From a virus, in the IMG/VR virus record IMGVR_UViG_3300042564_002302, positions 1-64,000 of that record: 64,000 nt of DNA. One strand, 5' to 3'. The notes beneath the pieces are model-generated. The model had not been told where the DNA came from, ran no database searches, and saw only the letters and a list, made by a program, of their open reading frames with translations. Within the stretch, counting starts at the first letter, position 1, and every line of letters begins with the position of its first letter. Position numbers and translations under genes: made by a program. Of this stretch, positions 1-5,469 are shown in pieces.

Positions 1-57
1 CTCAGGTCGTTTGGGTTTAGGTGTCTAGACTTTGTGTGCTAACCCCCCAAAACCTAT

Positions 58-474
58 TTAGAGATACTTAGCAATCTGCTTCATTGTAGAAGCATTTACT
101 GTTTCCTCATCTGTCATCTTGAGAATTGTGAGAGCATTTGTGATGTCCTCTACAATTTCATTGTATGAGTGCTGGTGCATAACTGTGAAATCACGCTCAG
201 GCTCTTTAGGGAAATCGCTTTCCTTTACAATCAAATCAAAATCAACATTGAGAGAGTTGTTCCAAGAACGATAAGATGTGCGGAAGTTTTCAGCCTTCTT
301 GATGTTTGCAATAGCAAAATCCTGAACTTCCTTTTTCCACTTCTCTCTTGACTTCTCATACTTTGCTTCGTTTGCACCCTGCTCAGCATAGTCTTTCTTG
401 ATAGTTGCCAACTTTGTTTCCAAAGCCTTGATAACCTTCGGTGTTGCCACCTTTACTGTAATTGCTCTTGACAT
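58..474 (-). CDS. hypothetical early protein (138 aa, partly coiled-coil)
   Basis: ORF track; SD GAAAAGGA upstream; own promoter at 511-532. Confidence 0.8.
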   Translation of the reverse strand: MSRAITVKVATPKVIKALETKLATIKKDYAEQGANEAKYEKSREKWKKEVQDFAIANIKKAENFRTSYRSWNNSLNVDFDLIVKESDFPKEPERDFTVMHQHSYNEIVEDITNALTILKMTDEETVNASTMKQIAKYL

Positions 475-510
475 AGTTTTCCTTTTCTTGTAGTGGGTTG
501 TATTTGGAGT

Positions 511-532
511 ATTGTATCAGAGGGGTCTGACA
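511..532 (-). promoter_or_regulatory. TGTCAG-N10-TACAAT promoter (PafBC/RecA-NDp-like), copy 1
   Basis: minus strand TGTCAG acccctctga TACAAT, upstream of SD and ATG at 474. Confidence 0.8.
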
Positions 533-612
533 TTTTACCCCGTAGGGTGAGAGTTCTTACTTACGACATTGGGCGAGAACACTCTCTAAACTGCCCCTGT
601 TTCGTTGTTGGA

Positions 613-759
613 TTACTTGATAGTAGTCCAACGCTCTTTACCACCCACATCTAGGCGGACACGCAAAGAGCCATTTGCGTTCTTGACTACTTCCTCAACC
701 TTGCCTGATACACCAGACTTAGCAGTTGTGAAGGTTTCCCCGATTTTTGGAGTTGTCAT
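613..759 (-). CDS. small basic beta-rich protein (MTTPKIGETF..., 48 aa)
   Basis: start reassigned to ATG 759 behind SD GAAAGGA; the longer ORF in the track would run through the promoter. Confidence 0.75.
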   Translation of the reverse strand: MTTPKIGETFTTAKSGVSGKVEEVVKNANGSLRVRLDVGGKERWTTIK

Positions 760-789
760 TTTTGCTTCCTTTCGTTTGTTGTTGAGAGT

Positions 790-811
790 ATTATAGCGGA
801 TAGGTCTGACA
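790..811 (-). promoter_or_regulatory. TGTCAG-N10-TATAAT promoter, copy 2
   Basis: TGTCAG acctatccgc TATAAT. Confidence 0.8.
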
Positions 812-849
812 TTTAGCCACCCCAATCCCATTATGCGAGATAGTTTTTG

Positions 850-865
850 TGTGATAAAAATCACA
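850..865. promoter_or_regulatory. CRP/GlxR-type site, perfect TGTGA-N6-TCACA
   Basis: TGTGA taaaaa TCACA upstream of promoter copy 2. Confidence 0.65.
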
Positions 866-1046
866 CGGCAGATAACTCATTAGCCCAGCAAGCATCTTCA
901 AACTTGCGGAAATCAAAGTTAGGATTATCAGCAGAGAACATTTCGCCAAACTCAAATACTAAATCCTCAAAAGAGTTTGAAGGTAGTAGGTCTGAGAATT
1001 GTTCCAAGATTTGTGCAGTTCTTACATAGTCCTTGCGTGTCATCAT
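861..1046 (-). CDS. hypothetical protein MTRKDY...DNPNF family (paralog of 3485-3652)
   Basis: ORF track; SD GAAAGG; shared MTRKDYV.TA.IL and DNPNF..KF motifs. Confidence 0.8.
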   Translation of the reverse strand: MMTRKDYVRTAQILEQFSDLLPSNSFEDLVFEFGEMFSADNPNFDFRKFEDACWANELSAV

Positions 1047-1078
1047 TTTAGTTTGCCTTTCGTAGTTGGTATGGGAGT

Positions 1079-1100
1079 ATTATAGCAAAACCCACTGACA
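1079..1100 (-). promoter_or_regulatory. TGTCAG-N10-TATAAT promoter, copy 3
   Basis: TGTCAG tgggttttgc TATAAT. Confidence 0.8.
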
Positions 1101-1137
1101 TTTTCCAGGTGACACGCCGTAATTTCCCGTAAATCCC

Positions 1138-1153
1138 TGTGATAAAAAACACA
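1138..1153. promoter_or_regulatory. CRP-type site (1 mismatch)
   Basis: TGTGA taaaaa ACACA. Confidence 0.55.
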
Positions 1154-1240
1154 CGATCTTAATTTGACTTACTGGCGAGTAGGGCGTGGCGCTGTCGGGC
1201 GTGTTGCCCTAGGCGCATATTTATGCAGAGTTATGAATAA

Positions 1241-1519
1241 TTATTCATATTCATCGTTGCACCAATTTTCTAAGTGGTGCGACATTATAATCTGATTAGC
1301 GGGAGCAGCTAAATTTCCACGCCAAGAAACGCCTTCAGGTAATTCAATCTCACGATAATAATCGCCTTCGTTATATGCTTCTATTGCTTCAATGCAAACG
1401 GGCACCATAGAATAAGGAACGGGCGGATAATGATTATTGCGTAATTGAATTGTAATTGCAGTGTTTAGATCAATACCAAAATCATTTTCTGCAAGTTCAG
1501 TAGATAGTGTATTTCCCAT
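1241..1519 (-). CDS. hypothetical protein (MGNTLSTELAEN..., NHYPPVP motif, 92 aa)
   Basis: start reassigned to ATG 1519, which overlaps the upstream TAA (TAATG coupling). Confidence 0.75.
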   Translation of the reverse strand: MGNTLSTELAENDFGIDLNTAITIQLRNNHYPPVPYSMVPVCIEAIEAYNEGDYYREIELPEGVSWRGNLAAPANQIIMSHHLENWCNDEYE

Positions 1520-1728
1520 TAGCGTGTTACCACCCTTCCATCTCGATAAAAAATCTTTGTGTAGCATTTTGCGCTAGGCGTATAAATATTTACAGTTGAA
1601 TATTCATTAGCCATTCCCCAGTCTTTGAATAGGAAGAAATTTTTCCACGCTTCCATTTCATCGTCATATTTCCCAGTCCAGTGTGGGCTTTCTTCATAGT
1701 CATATTGACAAGTTACTTTGTATTCCAT
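1519..1728 (-). CDS. hypothetical protein (69 aa)
   Basis: ORF track; TAATG-coupled to both neighbours. Confidence 0.75.
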   Translation of the reverse strand: MEYKVTCQYDYEESPHWTGKYDDEMEAWKNFFLFKDWGMANEYSTVNIYTPSAKCYTKIFYRDGRVVTR

Positions 1729-1892
1729 TATTCATTCACCCAATCTAAAGTCAATTCATCTTCTACATCTGCGACACAATCGCAAGGCTCGACATCGTAG
1801 TCATATTCATTTCCAAAAAATACGAAGCCTGCGCCACCGCATTCATCGCAAGGGGCTGCAACAATTTCCATTAGTTGTTTTACATTAGCCAT
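1728..1892 (-). CDS. Cys-containing microprotein (CxxCxGxG...CxC), putative Zn-binding
   Basis: start reassigned to ATG 1892 (MANVKQ...) behind SD GAAAGGA. Confidence 0.75.
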   Translation of the reverse strand: MANVKQLMEIVAAPCDECGGAGFVFFGNEYDYDVEPCDCVADVEDELTLDWVNE

Positions 1893-1893
1893 A

Positions 1894-2007
1894 TTAGTTT
1901 TCCTTTCGTGTTGTTGCGGATATTGTAGCAGATAGCACTGACAAGGCTTCTGCCTTGCTTGCCTCTCGCTGAGCGAGAACGGCGGCTCTAAATTCATCTA
2001 GATTCAT
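1894..2007 (-). CDS. 37 aa microprotein MNLDEFRAAVLAQREASKAEALSVLSATISATTRKEN
   Basis: read by eye; TAATG-coupled to the upstream ORF; contains promoter copy 4. Confidence 0.55.
   Translation of the reverse strand: MNLDEFRAAVLAQREASKAEALSVLSATISATTRKEN
1922..1943 (-). promoter_or_regulatory. TGTCAG-N10-TACAAT promoter, copy 4 (inside a small ORF)
   Basis: TGTCAG tgctatctgc TACAAT, 30 nt upstream of ATG 1892. Confidence 0.75.
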
Positions 2008-2129
2008 TAGATAGCACCTTCCTGAAATAATCCAATTTCAATGTCTAGTAATTCTTCAGGGGTTGCCTTAGATAAATCTACCCAAGACACGCCCTCTTCA
2101 TTTATGCGAGCAAATTCAATGTATCCCAT
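2007..2129 (-). CDS. 40 aa acidic microprotein MGYIEFARINEEGVSWVDLSKATPEELLDIEIGLFQEGAI
   Basis: read by eye; abuts both neighbouring ORFs. Confidence 0.65.
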   Translation of the reverse strand: MGYIEFARINEEGVSWVDLSKATPEELLDIEIGLFQEGAI

Positions 2130-2131
2130 TA

Positions 2132-2341
2132 TTACTCACCTACCTTTACCGCAATAGTTGCGTATTGTGTGCGTATTTTGCCTTTAGCATTTACGCCGAT
2201 TACATAGGCTTCAGTATTTTCACCATACCAAATACCTTCACGCTTTTCAGCGGAGATAATCTCACCCGAAAAAAATCGGTTGCGTGAGCGATAGTGTTTT
2301 CCTATAAGTAGGCTTTCGATAGTGTATAGTTTAGTAGCCAT
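2132..2341 (-). CDS. hypothetical protein (MATKLYTIESLL..., 69 aa)
   Basis: ORF track; ATG 2341 preferred behind SD AAGAAGG. Confidence 0.75.
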   Translation of the reverse strand: MATKLYTIESLLIGKHYRSRNRFFSGEIISAEKREGIWYGENTEAYVIGVNAKGKIRTQYATIAVKVGE

Positions 2342-2375
2342 AAGTGGCACCTTCTTTCTTTGTTGTTATGCCGTA

Positions 2376-2397
2376 AGTATAACAGAACCCACTGACA
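2376..2397 (-). promoter_or_regulatory. TGTCAG-N10-TATACT promoter, copy 5
   Basis: TGTCAG tgggttctgt TATACT. Confidence 0.8.
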
Positions 2398-2446
2398 TTT
2401 TTCACATTACTAGCCAGTAAGTCCAAATAGTAAGACGCTCAAGCCG

Positions 2447-2462
2447 TGTGTTTTATCTCACA
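2447..2462. promoter_or_regulatory. CRP-type site (1 mismatch)
   Basis: TGTGT tttatc TCACA. Confidence 0.5.
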
Positions 2463-2481
2463 CCAAAATGTCCGTTTTGTC

Positions 2482-2554
2482 TGTCAAATCGACACACCGT
2501 AAATCCCAGCCTTTTTTATAACAATTTCATAAAGACACGCCCGACCCCGCCTCG
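2482..2554. repeat. intergenic repeat element: TGTCAAATCGACACACCG (2482-2499) plus AAGACACGCCCGACnCCGCCTCG (2532-2554)
   Basis: 18 bp exact copy at 3386-3403; 22/23 copy at 3337-3359; 11-bp core inverted at 1194-1204. Confidence 0.8.
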
Positions 2555-2579
2555 AATTTTTATGCATTGCGTTGCATAT

Positions 2580-2711
2580 TTATTCAGAGAATTTATTTTT
2601 GTATTTTTGTTTTCGTGAATAAACTTTTTTAGATTTTACAAACGAAGCTGCGTTTGATCTTCGCAACTCCATTAGTTTTCTAATTTGTTCTTTTGTTTTT
2701 TTAAATTCCAT
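2580..2711 (-). CDS. 43 aa very basic peptide (ELRRSNAA...KKVYSRKQKYK)
   Basis: read by eye; TAATG-coupled; SD GAGG. Confidence 0.65.
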   Translation of the reverse strand: MEFKKTKEQIRKLMELRRSNAASFVKSKKVYSRKQKYKNKFSE

Positions 2712-2809
2712 TACCAACACCTCTCACATAACACGGTTAAAAATTCTGCGTCTTCTTCAGACATTTCCATTACGAATTCATCGCAACCTTTACAATTCAT
2801 ATCTTTCAT
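2711..2809 (-). CDS. 32 aa CxxC...CxxC microprotein
   Basis: read by eye: MKDMNCKGCDEFVMEMSEEDAEFLTVMCERCW. Confidence 0.6.
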   Translation of the reverse strand: MKDMNCKGCDEFVMEMSEEDAEFLTVLCERCW

Positions 2810-2980
2810 TTATTCACACTCACAATTTCCATATGGGTCAAACTCGCAGAAGTAGCAACCCATTTGCTCACCGTGAGCCTTGCATACATAAACAAACTGT
2901 GATTCATCACAGCAGAAGTGCTGACGGTCAATGATTTCATAGAATTCATTTTGGTCAATTACAATAGTTGAATTTATCAT
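2810..2980 (-). CDS. 56 aa Cys-rich microprotein (7 Cys)
   Basis: read by eye: MINSTIVIDQNEFYEIIDRQHFCCDESQFVYVCKAHGEQMGCYFCEFDPYGNCECE; ATGA overlap with upstream ORF. Confidence 0.7.
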   Translation of the reverse strand: MINSTIVIDQNEFYEIIDRQHFCCDESQFVYVCKAHGEQMGCYFCEFDPYGNCECE

Positions 2981-3153
2981 TTAGATACCTTCCAATCTCT
3001 CCACATTGGGAGTCTTTCATAGTCGGTATCATCATACCAACTTTCAATATTATTTTCACACACTTCGCAAAATGTGTATCGCATATCATCTACAATAGAG
3101 ATAGCAGGTTTGAAGGGAGTGTGCTCTTTGCACATTGTAATTGTTGAATTCAT
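2977..3153 (-). CDS. 58 aa CxxH...CxxC microprotein
   Basis: read by eye (MNSTITMCKEHTP...FCEVCENNIESW...); SD GAAAGGA. Confidence 0.7.
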   Translation of the reverse strand: MNSTITMCKEHTPFKPAISIVDDMRYTFCEVCENNIESWYDDTDYERLPMWRDWKVSK

Positions 3154-3203
3154 TTGAATTCCTTTCTAGTTTGAGAACCTTTCTCAACTTTCTTTATAAT
3201 GGA

Positions 3204-3225
3204 ATTATAGCAGGGGGGTCTGACA
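3204..3225 (-). promoter_or_regulatory. TGTCAG-N10-TATAAT promoter, copy 6
   Basis: TGTCAG acccccctgc TATAAT. Confidence 0.8.
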
Positions 3226-3336
3226 TTTACTGACGGGTAATGCCACAAATCGGACATTTTGAAATGTGATGTAGGTCATGTGGATAACTCACGCTCAAAT
3301 TCCAGTGTGATGTGCGTCATGTGTATAAACCTGTGG

Positions 3337-3403
3337 AAGACACGCCCGACGCCGCCTCGGAGATCGCAGCGAATTTTTTGCGATATGTCAAATCGACACA
3401 CCG
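3337..3403. repeat. second copy of the intergenic repeat element (two blocks in swapped order)
   Basis: AAGACACGCCCGACGCCGCCTCG 3337-3359; TGTCAAATCGACACACCG 3386-3403. Confidence 0.8.
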
Positions 3404-3484
3404 CAAAAAACTTTTTTATTTTATAAAATTATTAAACCGATTGCTAAAGCTAAGGCGCCTAATAAAATTAAATAAAATTCTGCT

Positions 3485-3652
3485 TTAATTTTTATAAACC
3501 GCCTCTCTAAATTTTGTTTCGTTAAAATTTGGATTATCGCTTGCAAAATATTCGGAGAAATCTTTTACAATATTTCCAGAAACGGCGGGATGAAGATTTG
3601 AAATGTAAGAATTTAAAATCTCTGCAGTTTTTACGTAGTCTTTTCTAGTCAT
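3485..3652 (-). CDS. 55 aa protein, paralog of 861-1046
   Basis: read by eye: MTRKDYVKTAEILNSY...FASDNPNFNETKFREAVYKN. Confidence 0.75.
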   Translation of the reverse strand: MTRKDYVKTAEILNSYISNLHPAVSGNIVKDFSEYFASDNPNFNETKFREAVYKN

Positions 3653-3756
3653 TAGTTTAGTCCATTTTCTCTTAGGTCTTTGATTACAAGGCGGAGCATA
3701 AGTAGCGCAGGAATTCCAATTCCTATTTGCACTAGTGTAGTTAGTAGTCTGTTCAT
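3652..3756 (-). CDS. 34 aa putative membrane peptide
   Basis: MNRLLTTLVQIGIGIPALLMLRLVIKDLRENGLN; TAATG coupling. Confidence 0.6.
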   Translation of the reverse strand: MNRLLTTLVQIGIGIPALLMLRLVIKDLRENGLN

Positions 3757-3894
3757 TTATTTATTCTTCTTTCTCTTATAAATTTTGTAAGCGATTAACG
3801 CAATAGCGGACGGGATCAAAACTTGCCACGATAGGGCTATGTAGCAAACATAGGTGTCAAACTCTAAGCCGTAGTCATTTAGTTCTAGTGTCAT
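3757..3894 (-). CDS. 45 aa putative single-pass membrane peptide with basic tail
   Basis: MTLELNDYGLEFDTYVCYIALSWQVLIPSAIALIAYKIYKRKKNK; SD GAGG. Confidence 0.65.
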   Translation of the reverse strand: MTLELNDYGLEFDTYVCYIALSWQVLIPSAIALIAYKIYKRKKNK

Positions 3895-4049
3895 TACTTA
3901 TTTACCTCTACTTCTCTAATGTTATAGGTAAAGCCTTTACCTAGTTTATTTAGTTCAGCGATTACCGCTAAAATTTCTTCGGGCTTGCTAGCCTTTTGAT
4001 TTACGGCTAATAGTTGAGAGCCTTGCCATAGTGTGTAGGTGATAGTCAT
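3894..4049 (-). CDS. 51 aa hypothetical protein
   Basis: MTITYTLWQGSQLLAVNQKASKPEEIL...; TAATG coupling on both sides. Confidence 0.65.
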   Translation of the reverse strand: MTITYTLWQGSQLLAVNQKASKPEEILAVIAELNKLGKGFTYNIREVEVNK

Positions 4050-4240
4050 TAGAGCATTTCCGCCATTTCTGATAGTAGAGCACTTACTTGCTCATCTGTT
4101 AATTCTTCATCTAGGAAATCCTCATCTTCTGAGGTTTCCATTTCTTCATCTAGGTAGGCGTAGGCGTCTGCTACATCTTCCTGAATTGTATCCCACTTAG
4201 AGTAGGTTGATTGTGTAAAGTTGTAATTTGAGTAAGACAT
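4049..4240 (-). CDS. highly acidic 63 aa protein
   Basis: ORF track; 19 D/E versus 1 K. Confidence 0.75.
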   Translation of the reverse strand: MSYSNYNFTQSTYSKWDTIQEDVADAYAYLDEEMETSEDEDFLDEELTDEQVSALLSEMAEML

Positions 4241-4274
4241 TTTTTATCTTCTTTCTTTAGTAGTTATAGGGTTA

Positions 4275-4304
4275 ATTATAGGGGGACGATTTAGGGAAAG
4301 TCAA
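4275..4304 (-). promoter_or_regulatory. sigma70/SigA-type promoter TTGACT-N18-TATAAT
   Basis: consensus match upstream of 4240; CRP-like TGTGA-N6-GCACA at 4315-4330. Confidence 0.7.
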
Positions 4305-4320
4305 ATCTATTTCGTGTGAT

Positions 4321-4533
4321 TTAGCGCACACGATTAGCGAATACCCACTTACTTTCGTTAGGGGTTAGATAGCGGTGAGAAATCATATTCTCAGAGGCTA
4401 CCATATGAACGAACGCCATTCGGCTAATGTAGTTACCATTAGCAAGGCGGAAGATATTTTTATTCTTAGTGTTAGAGGAAGCCATTGGGTGGCTAGGCTC
4501 TACTACTACTGTTAGTGTATTTAGTGAATTCAT
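4321..4533 (-). CDS. hypothetical protein (70 aa)
   Basis: ORF track; SD GAAAGGA. Confidence 0.75.
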   Translation of the reverse strand: MNSLNTLTVVVEPSHPMASSNTKNKNIFRLANGNYISRMAFVHMVASENMISHRYLTPNESKWVFANRVR

Positions 4534-4648
4534 TTTAGAATTCCTTTCTTTTTATTTGGTTAGTATTTCTAACCTTTTCCTTGACCTAACTTATTTGCCC
4601 TATTGCTAGGGGCTCATTTAGGATTTTCTATTTAATTGTTATGGCTTA

Positions 4649-4677
4649 AGCCTAGCACACCATTTCGGGAAAATCAA
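4649..4677 (-). promoter_or_regulatory. SigA-type promoter TTGATT-N17-TAGGCT
   Basis: actinobacterial-style -10 TAnnnT; CRP-like TGTGG-N6-TCACA at 4688-4703. Confidence 0.6.
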
Positions 4678-4698
4678 GCCCATTTGGTGTGGTGTTGC

Positions 4699-4878
4699 TC
4701 ACACTAGGCGAGGGTCTGTCCTAGAGTCAAACCGCCACTCTGGTGTGGGGCAAGTAGCCTGATGAACTACATATCCTAACCAGTTATTATCACAGTTAGG
4801 GCAAACCATATGCAATGGCTTAGGCATATCCTTAACATCGGACATCCAACTATTTCTATTTTCAAACAGTGAATTCAT
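4699..4878 (-). CDS. 59 aa CxxC...HxxxC microprotein
   Basis: read by eye (MNSLFENRNSW...VCPNC...HQATC...); SD GAAAGGA. Confidence 0.65.
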   Translation of the reverse strand: MNSLFENRNSWMSDVKDMPKPLHMVCPNCDNNWLGYVVHQATCPTPEWRFDSRTDPRLV

Positions 4879-4932
4879 TTTGAATTCCTTTCTTTTTTCT
4901 GTTGATAACCTTTATCAACTTTCTATAGTAGA

Positions 4933-4954
4933 ACTATAACACCTACCACTGACA
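4933..4954 (-). promoter_or_regulatory. TGTCAG-N10-TATAGT promoter, copy 7
   Basis: TTGTCAGTG gtaggtgt TATAGT; CRP-like TGTGA-N6-CCACA at 4993-5008. Confidence 0.8.
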
Positions 4955-5110
4955 AATTGGGGGGTTTTTGGGGTGTTTTTCAAAACTATTTTTGTGATTT
5001 AGACCACATCTAGGGCTATGGGCGCACTAAATGTCCGATTTTTACCTTTTCAGATCGTGCATCATACATGAAAAATATATATTAACATTTTTATAAATCT
5101 GAAAAAGCAG

Positions 5111-5140
5111 TTGACCAAAATAAAAGGGCGGAGGTATAAT
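5111..5140 (+). promoter_or_regulatory. SigA-type promoter TTGACC-N18-TATAAT (leaderless; probably also drives the tRNA)
   Basis: ATG 6 nt after the -10 hexamer. Confidence 0.6.
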
Positions 5141-5146
5141 AAGATC

Positions 5147-5224
5147 ATGAGAACAATACTTGCCATAGCTATAGTCACCACAATGACTTTTATCTTTGGC
5201 ATATGCTTTCAGATATTTGCATAA
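5147..5224 (+). CDS. 25 aa hydrophobic peptide
   Basis: MRTILAIAIVTTMTFIFGICFQIFA; leaderless geometry. Confidence 0.45.
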   Translation: MRTILAIAIVTTMTFIFGICFQIFA

Positions 5225-5229
5225 CCCTA

Positions 5230-5304
5230 GGGGATATAGCTTAATCTGGTTAAAGCATTTGTCTTATATACAAACGACTCTGGGTTCAAATCCCAGTATC
5301 CCTA
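5230..5304 (+). tRNA. tRNA-Ile, anticodon UAU
   Basis: acceptor GGGGATA/TATCCCT, D arm GCTT/AAGC, anticodon stem TTTGT/ACAAA with loop CT-TAT-AT, T arm CTGGG-TTCAAAT-CCCAG; CCA not encoded. Confidence 0.85.
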
Positions 5305-5322
5305 CAATGATATAATTATCCT

Positions 5323-5469
5323 ATGCATGATCATGATAATTTTGTAATAGCTACAGGTGGCGGAATAAGTGAGATGACACTTATGTGGATCATCATGGGA
5401 GCTATGGCTATACATCACATTTGGATGTGGCATAAAATGAAATCCAAAAAGTGCAAGTGTAAGAAATGA
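5323..5469 (+). CDS. 48 aa putative membrane peptide, His-containing with basic Cys tail
   Basis: MHDHDNFVIATGGGISEMTLMWIIMGAMAIHHIWMWHKMKSKKCKCKK; TGaTATAAT 6 nt upstream (leaderless). Confidence 0.55.
   Translation: MHDHDNFVIATGGGISEMTLMWIIMGAMAIHHIWMWHKMKSKKCKCKK

Follow-up and report, generated by a model that had tools for sequence, protein, structure and literature searches.

Promoters shaped like PafBC promoters in an uncultured lake phage

The question raised by this locus is why a block of very small phage genes should be preceded, again and again, by sites which have the layout of host promoters switched on by PafBC, the actinobacterial activator that responds to single-stranded DNA. 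The window examined here (viz. the whole stretch of DNA that was analysed, 64,000 nucleotides in length, corresponding to positions 1 to 64,000 of the IMG/VR record IMGVR_UViG_3300042564_002302) is part of a 90,415-bp contig of an uncultured freshwater phage with 39% G+C. In the original prediction, seven minus-strand copies of the motif TGTCAG-N10-TAnAnT were described in the region 511-4954, and it was proposed that the phage may couple early host-takeover microproteins to the PafBC damage sensor of its host. The observation itself is confirmed by our analysis. Exactly seven matches to this pattern were found, all on the minus strand, whereas shuffled sequences gave a mean of 0.23 matches and none of 100 shuffles reached seven. 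A scan of the rest of the genome had been proposed beforehand as a test of this observation, and it showed no further copy in the whole contig, while a backwards control pattern gave 0 matches. A relaxed scan with TGTC-N12-TAnnnT added no credible site. Of the seven sites, four read TGTCAGTG and three read TGTCAGAC, and six of the seven carry the TG of an extended -10 one base upstream of the -10 hexamer, the exception being the site at 790-811. In the order of their coordinates (511-532 to 4933-4954), the distances from the end of the -10 to the ATG are 36, 30, 32, 29, 34, 50 and 54 nt, and in each case an AAGGA-type Shine-Dalgarno sequence is present. The features of this region, in the direction of transcription, are as follows.

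4933..4954, minus strand: PafBC-type promoter P7 (TGTCAGTGG...TGTTATAGT), with a 54-nt leader containing two hairpins
4699..4878, minus strand: 59-aa ORF with Cys pairs, the first gene after P7, for which no Pfam or PHROG family was found
4321..4533, minus strand: 70-aa ORF with a hairpin leader, before which no PafBC-type promoter was seen
4275..4304, minus strand: canonical sigma-70-type promoter TTGACT-N18-TATAAT, lying inside the array
3485..4240, minus strand: five small ORFs (63, 51, 45, 34 and 55 aa) downstream of the canonical promoter
3204..3225, minus strand: PafBC-type promoter P6 (TGTCAGACC...TGCTATAAT), with a 50-nt leader containing two hairpins; the identical 22-mer is in the relative G004
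2580..3153, minus strand: four small ORFs (58, 56, 32 and about 43-46 aa), three of them Cys-rich, after P6
2376..2397, minus strand: PafBC-type promoter P5 (TGTCAGTGG...TGTTATACT)
1894..2341, minus strand: three small ORFs (69, 40 and 37 aa) after P5
1922..1943, minus strand: PafBC-type promoter P4 (TGTCAGTGC...TGCTACAAT), lying inside the 37-aa ORF; the identical 22-mer is in G004
1241..1892, minus strand: three ORFs (54, 69 and 91 aa) after P4, the last of which is conserved in 25 IMG/VR loci
1079..1100, minus strand: PafBC-type promoter P3 (TGTCAGTGG...TGCTATAAT); G004 has the same site with G at position 5
861..1046, minus strand: 61-aa ORF after P3, a paralogue of 3485-3652
790..811, minus strand: PafBC-type promoter P2 (TGTCAGACC...CGCTATAAT), the one site without the extended -10 TG
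613..759, minus strand: 48-aa ORF after P2
511..532, minus strand: PafBC-type promoter P1 (TGTCAGACC...TGATACAAT)
58..474, minus strand: 138-aa ORF after P1; the contig ends 57 nt beyond it, so the array may continue

Enrichment in related phages had likewise been named in advance as a point to be examined. Of 27 early-region loci of environmental relatives, 25 have 4-22 copies on the gene strand. Over all 112 loci examined at that stage (1.35 Mb), there were 251 forward, 10 reverse and 14 control matches, and five further relatives have 8-15 copies each, mostly in blocks of 8-10 kb. Further, among 674 unique extended -10 sites, TGTC lies at the exact offset in 240 hits, whereas at the other offsets tested (-4 to +4) the count is only 0-11. 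Of the 43 one-mismatch variants of TGTCAG, 40 differ at position 5 or 6 and only 3 change TGTC; the core is therefore TGTC. The logo of 169 unique sites shows no -35, with only an A-run at the place where a -35 would lie, and a consensus scan of the seven sites of this phage flagged two of them, each with a weak 4-of-6 hexamer (TGGAAA and GTGAAA). Of 170 unique sites, 126 are followed within 120 nt by a Shine-Dalgarno sequence, a start codon and an ORF of at least 25 aa, at a median distance of 31 nt. However, the closest cultured relatives of this phage, viz. Streptomyces phages of the Stanwilliamsviridae, do not share this characteristic. In five of these Streptomyces relatives, whose hosts have PafBC-type promoters (PMC5087735), no enrichment was seen (4 hits against 14 control hits), so the motif is a trait of this clade. 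The phage also has canonical TTGAC-type promoters elsewhere, and the sites described here are thus a distinct class.

The geometry of these sites equals that of the published PafBC motif tGTCgg(N10)tA(N3)T, in which PafB contacts positions -23 to -28, the GTC triplet is read by two arginines and there is no -35 (PMC8635444). All seven sites have the tGTC(g/a)g box exactly 10 nt before a TAnnnT -10, and the near-invariance of the GTC triplet with looser neighbouring positions is also seen. The consensus tTGTCRgtg-N8-TAnnnT, which was given for this motif in the original prediction, was not encountered in the literature that we consulted. On the host side, the strict motif lies upstream of recA, on the recA strand, in 19 of 27 Actinomycetia loci and in 14 of 16 small-genome loci, i.e. 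in 33 of 43 in total. Five complete 1.4-Mb genomes, considered here as candidate hosts, read tTGTCAGTGG(or AGG)..CCTG(C/A)TACCTT before recA, which is almost the phage form. Independent agreement comes from positions that were not fixed by the search pattern. The trimers at positions 7-9 of the phage sites are ACC in 55 and TGG in 38 of 170 sites (background 1.2% and 1.6%, respectively), and at the host recA sites TGG (8) and ACC (6) of 29 are also the two commonest. A comparison of the sites with a matrix of host sites had been suggested earlier as a check, and on the non-pattern columns the matrix derived from host recA sites scores the phage sites -1.08, against -4.29 (sd 0.28) for random positions. 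However, position 5 is A in most phage sites but G in most host sites, and when the contig is ranked with the host recA matrix only two of the seven sites are at the top (ranks 1 and 2), two more are at ranks 13-14 and three are lower.

The phage is most likely an actinophage. It encodes WhiB (45.3 bits, above the cut-off), whose gene is used as an indicator of actinophages (PMC10202952, PMC10914622), and its portal and capsid proteins are about 61% identical to those of Streptomyces phages. The individual host has not been identified. The binning of related phage contigs with Aquiluna, Bacteroidia, Saccharibacteria and Brevundimonas MAGs is contradictory and is probably a composition artefact. 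The presence of pafBC in the host, another point that had been put forward beforehand for checking, was examined in candidate lineages only, and the outcome there leaves undecided whether the organism reading these sites has the pair. Tandem WYL ORFs are present in five of five of the small genomes, and one pair was confirmed as PafB and PafC. In these 1.4-Mb genomes the tandem pafB-pafC genes are followed by tatC, and their domains are WYL, WCX and HTH_PafC, with matches to PDB 7p5x and 6sj9. HTH_PafC passes its cut-off in 57 of 61 genomes of the class, or in 50 of 54 if the unpublished ones are left out. It had also been asked whether the phage possesses a WYL regulator of its own, and none was found in its contig or in five relatives, one of which is 97% complete. 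A tblastn search with PafB and PafC against 1.43 Mb of phage DNA gave nothing below E = 3, and no sigma region 2 was found in the phage DNA. The contig is only 73% complete and a phage factor could lie in the missing part. A 53-aa helix-turn-helix protein is encoded at contig positions 77402-77563.

Based on these results, the interpretation given in the original prediction is partly supported. The explanation that we favour, with moderate confidence, is that the seven sites are real promoters of the actinobacterial PafBC-dependent class, each with a -26 element TGTCAG at about -28 to -23, no -35 hexamer and a -10 TAnnnT, and that they are read by the PafBC and RNA polymerase of the host. In this view, the housekeeping RNA polymerase of the host would stop at the -10, and host PafBC, once it has bound single-stranded DNA, would slip between sigma region 4 and the DNA, with its PafB helix-turn-helix reading the GTC triplet. 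Transcription would then start about 7 nt after the -10, giving short leaders with strong ribosome-binding sites and 1-4 small genes per promoter. The phage would bring the promoters and the host the activator, and the block would be switched on or boosted when single-stranded DNA appears, either from phage replication or recombination, from nuclease attack on the incoming genome, or in a host that is already damaged. What our analysis establishes is the existence of the sites, their fixed register and their conservation in a phage clade, together with the occurrence of the same motif at actinobacterial recA genes and of pafBC in candidate host genomes, whereas the host, the binding of PafBC and its requirement, the start sites, the timing of the block and the trigger are inferences, and it is likewise not shown that the block is early or serves host takeover. 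No bench experiment was carried out; PafBC occupancy and pafBC-dependent induction by single-stranded DNA or DNA damage were not measured, and the only RNA-derived data, contigs of RNA libraries, contain promoter sequence and hence say nothing about transcription starts. A real-time in vitro transcription assay with mycobacterial polymerase, PafBC and short single-stranded DNA has been published (PMC11804915).

However, if the host housekeeping polymerase alone can read these sites, then they would be constitutive extended -10 promoters, as was also allowed for in the original prediction, and TGTCAG would be the binding site of a phage-encoded regulator without a WYL domain, either a repressor that later shuts the block off or a MotA-like activator that defines a middle class. 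We regard this possibility as less likely, but it stays open. The -10 is close to consensus, TG precedes it in six of the seven sites and G is found at that position in 147 of 169 sites overall, and it is much stronger than the host TAGCGT-type -10, so the promoters may fire without any activator. The incompleteness of the contig, the small helix-turn-helix ORF and the absence of this usage in the Streptomyces relatives are also in accordance with it. On the other hand, a phage-specific site would not be expected to copy the host recA promoter down to the TGG/ACC preference after the hexamer, no candidate factor stands next to the block, the 97%-complete relative still has no WYL gene, and the fixed register with the -10 fits a factor working within the polymerase complex better than a simple operator.

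It is also conceivable, but improbable, that the sites act mainly as decoys, so that many strong PafBC sites on a replicating phage genome would soak up PafBC-polymerase complexes and starve the PafBC regulon of the host, the expression of the small genes being secondary. The phage has 7 sites in 4.4 kb and relatives have up to 22 in 20 kb, whereas candidate host genomes have 11-15 pattern matches per 1.4 Mb, and in one such genome nine sites sit before island genes, among them a DNA methylase, TPR proteins and a peptidase. However, the promoter-like distance of 126 of the 170 unique sites from a ribosome-binding site and an ORF argues for selection on expression, and titration was not measured. 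The least likely reading is that the motif is a repeat spread by the duplication of gene cassettes, and hence a by-product of paralogous small genes rather than a selected regulatory signal. Some of the small proteins are indeed paralogues (861-1046 and 3485-3652) and two leaders are near-copies, but the spacers and flanks differ while TGTC, its register and the -10 stay fixed across 169 unique sites, and one of the two paralogues (3485-3652) lies behind the canonical promoter and not behind a TGTCAG site. This reading is already disfavoured.

In comparison with known systems, the closest are the PafBC-dependent (RecA-NDp) promoters of Mycobacterium and other Actinobacteria, which are read by sigma adaptation. 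The 22-nt layout tGTC(g/a)g-N10-tAnnnT, the box at -28 to -23, the lack of a -35, the nearly invariant GTC and the preference for TGG or ACC after the hexamer are shared with them. However, the sites described here are on a phage and drive small genes of unknown function instead of repair genes, position 5 is mostly A, the -10 is near consensus with an extended TG, an A-run precedes the box, and the density is about 1.6 per kb against about 0.01 per kb in candidate host genomes. In the middle promoters of phage T4 (a MotA box near -30, with AsiA; sigma appropriation) the -35 is similarly replaced by a box closer to the -10, which is read by a protein wedged between sigma region 4 and the DNA, a comparison that is drawn in PMC8635444 itself. 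However, T4 encodes its own factors and remodels sigma, whereas here no phage factor was found (homologues of MotA or AsiA were not sought) and the box equals the site of a host activator. Plain extended -10 (TGn) promoters share the TG and the lack of a -35 but have no conserved element at -26, whereas here TGTC is at a fixed offset. The host-takeover or pre-early modules of large lytic phages such as SPO1 and T5 are likewise blocks of many small genes without known families, with closely spaced promoters and strong ribosome-binding sites, but those modules use ordinary host promoters. In SOS-coupled prophage induction through RecA and LexA- or CI-type repressors, a phage also reads the DNA-damage signalling of its host, but that system works by repressor cleavage in lysogens, whereas here an activator-type promoter sits on what looks like a lytic genome, in which no search for an integrase or repressor was made.

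PafBC promoters are known only as the DNA-damage regulon of the host, and our literature searches found no paper describing a phage regulon of this kind. A far-reaching possibility, which we consider unlikely but not excluded, is that a whole clade of abundant lake phages uses PafBC, the single-stranded-DNA alarm of the host, as its own sensor. In that case the small-gene block would be a takeover or counter-defence programme that fires only when DNA ends or gaps appear, whether from nuclease attack, replication onset or UV-damaged cells, and its many strong sites would also out-compete the PafBC regulon of the host, which in candidate hosts includes the island genes noted above. If a phage clade drives a gene block through PafBC promoters, this would be the first case of a lytic phage using a host WYL activator and sigma adaptation for its own programme, and it would parallel the MotA/AsiA system of T4, but with a borrowed factor. 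It would further link phage gene timing to single-stranded DNA, the same signal that many defence regulators sense, and it would do so in phages of some of the most abundant freshwater bacteria.

If the motif TGTCAG-N10-TAnAnT occurred in this DNA by chance, then fewer than one copy on average should be found in it. However, exactly seven matches to this pattern were found in the window, all of them on the minus strand and at the coordinates stated in the original prediction, whereas shuffled sequences gave 0.23 matches on average and none of the 100 shuffles reached seven. The occurrence of the motif in the rest of the genome had been proposed in advance as a check, and in the whole record, which is a 90,415-bp IMG/VR virus contig rated 73% complete, there is no other copy of this motif and no match to the backwards control pattern. 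A looser scan (TGTC-N12-TAnnnT) also added nothing credible. The division of the sites into four of the form TGTCAGTG and three of the form TGTCAGAC, the presence of TG before the -10 in six of the seven sites, and the distances of 29-54 nt from the -10 to the start codons all agree with what was described in the original prediction, and the observation thus holds in full. As the array reaches the first bases of the contig, it may be cut short.

The window has a G+C content of about 39%. The portal protein is about 61% identical to those of Streptomyces phages of the family Stanwilliamsviridae, whose genomes are about 130 kb, and the major capsid protein is likewise about 61% identical. The contig encodes a WhiB-like protein scoring over the Pfam cut-off, and in papers on freshwater phages whiB is treated as the mark of actinophages (PMC10202952, PMC10914622). 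It also encodes its own RecA, DnaB-type helicase, primase, Pol III alpha and a Cas4-like nuclease. The stretch 1-5400 is represented in lake-water and freshwater metagenome runs, with nine runs from eight studies containing at least half of its words, although one of these may be the source sample. Based on these results, this is an uncultured freshwater phage, most likely of an actinobacterium. Contigs from four freshwater metatranscriptome runs, at 90% identity or more, cover parts of 1-5400 and are deepest at 1-720. However, as these contigs include promoter sequence and carry-over of DNA is not excluded, they provide no evidence on start sites or expression, and no significance should be attached to the parts that lack cover.

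The following features of the array and its surroundings are referred to below (positions are those of the window unless noted otherwise):
3145-3197, 4870-4926 and 4525-4585, minus strand: three leaders with a two-hairpin layout
850-865, minus strand, with similar words near 1135-1150 and 2441-2460: palindromes of the TGTGA-N6-TCACA type
about 2530-2560 and 3340-3370, minus strand: a repeated G+C-rich word in two intergenic stretches
861-1046 and 3485-3652, minus strand: two paralogous small proteins
4275-4304: a canonical promoter inside the array
5230-5305, plus strand: a tRNA-Ile gene with anticodon TAT, just upstream of the array
contig 77402-77563 (outside the window; L113:13402-13563 in the locus numbering), plus strand: a 53-aa helix-turn-helix ORF

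In the three leaders, the first element is a 6-9-bp hairpin whose stem differs between copies by paired changes, whereas the second is formed by two GAAUUC words and holds the AUG in or at its loop, next to the Shine-Dalgarno sequence. The folding z-scores are -2.6, -5.5 and -4.2, and this layout may be a form of translational control. The palindromes lie 60-85 nt upstream of some of the promoters; they could be read as CRP-type sites, but they could also be terminator stems without a T-run. The G+C-rich word (CGAGGCGG.GTCGGGCGTGTCTT) is repeated upstream of the promoters P5 and P6 of the array, and GTGTCGATTTGACA-like words stand nearby. Of the small proteins encoded by the block, ten gave no Pfam hit above the cut-off and only one weak PHROG hit. 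The two paralogous proteins both start M(M)TRKDYV and share DNPNF, and of these one lies behind a PafBC-type promoter and the other behind the canonical promoter. A search for the conserved 108-aa protein of the block found no cultured phage that encodes it.

The enrichment of the motif in related phages was another point on which the original prediction could be examined, and the outcome differed between cultured and environmental relatives. Five cultured Streptomyces relatives show no enrichment, with 4 matches against 14 for the control pattern. In contrast, one environmental contig with a 79%-identical portal has nine copies on one strand within 5 kb, and three of these are identical to sites in the window. 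A search with the 108-aa protein brought 25 loci, and when these are considered together with that relative and the window, 25 of 27 loci carry 4-22 copies on the gene strand. Over 112 loci, there were 251 forward, 10 reverse and 14 control matches. In addition, five larger relatives, one of them 97% complete, have 8-15 copies each, nearly all on one strand and mostly within blocks of 8-10 kb. It should be noted that sites from related genomes are not independent. The logo of 169 unique sites reads aAAA-TGTCAG-(T/A)(C/G)(C/G)-..t.TG.TA.AaT and shows no -35. When the hexamer was not presupposed, TGTC was found at the exact offset before 240 extended -10 hits, as against 0-11 at neighbouring offsets, and of 43 one-mismatch variants, 40 change position 5 or 6. 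Further, 126 of 170 unique sites are followed within 120 nt by a Shine-Dalgarno sequence, a start codon and an ORF of at least 25 aa, with a median distance of 31 nt; the first ORF has a median length of 61.5 aa and successive sites are 688 bp apart at the median. These are promoters of one conserved class.

Two IMG/VR pattern scans, in which five Ns rather than the required four were placed between TGG and TG, returned single off-register matches and they are not informative as to how widespread the motif is. However, three of the loci obtained in this manner (L330, L412 and L413, the last from a contig of 129,481 bp) happen to carry correct-register arrays. These virus contigs form a second group, with a G+C content of about 45%, which carry 6-8 correct-register sites of the form tTGTCGGGG..TG.TAaaCT, each followed by GAAAGGGA and a start codon, and there is no tblastx match to the present phage in the pieces of these contigs that were compared.

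The in vivo PafBC motif has been given as tGTCgg(N10)tA(N3)T, in which PafB contacts -23 to -28 (the "-26 element"), the GTC triplet is read by two arginines, its guanines are almost invariant across actinobacteria, and no -35 exists (PMC8635444). PafBC is activated by single-stranded DNA (PMC11804915). The phage sites have this layout exactly, although the form of the consensus given in the original prediction, tTGTCRgtg-N8-TAnnnT, was not seen in the literature consulted. In a sample of the class that holds an Aquiluna-labelled MAG, the strict motif lies upstream of recA on the coding strand in 19 of 27 loci (two loci from unpublished genomes were left out), and this is also the case for 14 of 16 loci from small genomes, with the other two differing by one base. 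Five complete genomes of about 1.4 Mb read tTGTCAG(T/A)GG..CCTG(C/A)TACCTT, and they have A at position 5 and the TG before the -10, as in the phage. These small genomes may be Nanopelagicales-like, but this is only a guess that rests on their size and on the 44-47% G+C in one region. The three bases after the hexamer were not part of any search pattern, and in the phage they are ACC (55 of 170) or TGG (38 of 170), against backgrounds of 1.2% and 1.6%, while TGG (8) and ACC (6) are also the two commonest among 29 unique host recA sites. A comparison with a weight matrix had likewise been suggested at the outset, and on the non-pattern columns a matrix built from the host recA sites scores phage sites far above random positions (-1.08 against -4.29, sd 0.28). 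However, the full host matrix ranks only two of the seven sites at the top of the contig (first and second), two more are at ranks 13-14 and three are lower, due to the facts that host sites are G+C-rich, so that the high-G+C columns penalise the A+T-rich phage sites, and that they mostly have G at position 5.

Whether the predicted host possesses pafBC was also among the points to be examined, and candidate hosts were searched for it. All five small genomes that were searched have two adjacent WYL ORFs. In one of these genomes, the pair consists of WYL+WCX and HTH_PafC+WYL+WCX, followed by tatC, and the first ORF matches the PafB chains of PDB 7p5x and 9fnd and the PafBC of 6sj9. HTH_PafC passes its cut-off in 57 of 61 genomes of the class, or in 50 of 54 when the seven unpublished genomes are not included. 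The small genomes have 11-15 pattern matches per 1.4 Mb, against 7-10 for the control, and the phage block is therefore about a hundred times denser. In one 1.4-Mb candidate-host genome (G149, contig C1, 439,000-471,000; loci L176 and L177), nine PafBC-type sites cluster in about 31 kb of lower G+C, each of them 25-200 nt before an ORF. These ORFs are a trypsin-like peptidase, two TPR proteins, a C5 DNA methylase, an OGG-like glycosylase and four unknowns, and this region may be a variable or defence island wired to PafBC. A similar cluster is present in a further genome, G190, at 915-961 kb.

Attempts to identify the host through genome bins did not provide a usable assignment. A scan of genome contigs with the phage WhiB found no relative, whereas the same scan with the ribonucleotide reductase found nine loci, most of which are phage contigs binned into MAGs of unrelated names, viz. 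Saccharibacteria, Brevundimonas, Bacteroidia, Aquiluna and Patescibacteria. The contigs of this phage clade in public MAGs include the loci L115-L119, contig C2 of genome G006 and contigs C6, C57, C106, C174, C213 and C215 of genome G009. The Bacteroidia MAG holds several contigs with motif clusters, while contig C2 of the Aquiluna MAG is a free 57-kb phage contig with no host flank. The presence of these contigs in the bins should not be interpreted as indicating the host, as it is likely due to bin contamination by phage DNA, and binning has therefore not been used here to name a host. Strong Shine-Dalgarno sequences, such as those in this block, argue against Bacteroidia.

The possibility that the phage encodes its own WYL regulator had been raised as a specific test, and no WYL domain was found in this contig or in five relatives. 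A tblastn search with PafB and PafC against 1.43 Mb of phage DNA gave nothing below E = 3. There is no sigma region 2 in the contig and only a sub-threshold region-4-like hit (Sigma70_r4, 19.2 bits), which is the 53-aa helix-turn-helix ORF of the replication module, located between a 188-aa ORF and a methyltransferase gene. The contig also has canonical TTGAC-N16-18-TAnAnT promoters (12, against 4.6 in shuffles), of which one lies inside the array at 4275-4304 and several lie near whiB at 78-88 kb. The TGTCAG promoters are thus a separate class, and the phage may have a temporal programme, although the order in which the two classes act was not determined.

Our literature searches found no paper describing PafBC-type promoters on a phage, although PafBC regulon tables in supplementary files, which could list phage-like targets, were not part of this survey; one study reportedly deals with pafBC and mycobacteriophage resistance (Rafique et al. 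2025, cited in PMC12848934). The results added here are the register test, the shared TGG/ACC preference, the near-identical recA promoters and the pafBC genes in 1.4-Mb genomes, the lack of enrichment of the motif in cultured Streptomyces relatives, and the chance find of a second group of contigs with arrays of tTGTCGGGG-type sites.

The original prediction was that the phage may couple early host-takeover microproteins to the PafBC damage sensor of its host, and this interpretation is supported in part. While the promoters, their conservation and their agreement with the PafBC motif are results of the sequence comparisons, the reading of these promoters by PafBC is inferred from them, and "early" and "host takeover" are likewise inferences, which rest on the make-up of the block, viz. 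about 22 small ORFs without families, strong ribosome sites, and a strand opposite to the rest of the genome. The main rival explanation, which we consider possible but unlikely, is that the near-consensus extended -10 makes these promoters constitutive and that TGTCAG serves a phage regulator without a WYL domain. The shared TGG/ACC preference and the near-identity to the recA promoters of candidate hosts speak against this rival, but they do not exclude it. A role of the sites as decoys is less likely still, and it is least likely that they are a by-product of duplication. Of these readings, the one that we favour, with moderate confidence, is that the host RNA polymerase-SigA together with the host PafBC reads these promoters, in which case the block would be switched on or boosted when single-stranded DNA appears.
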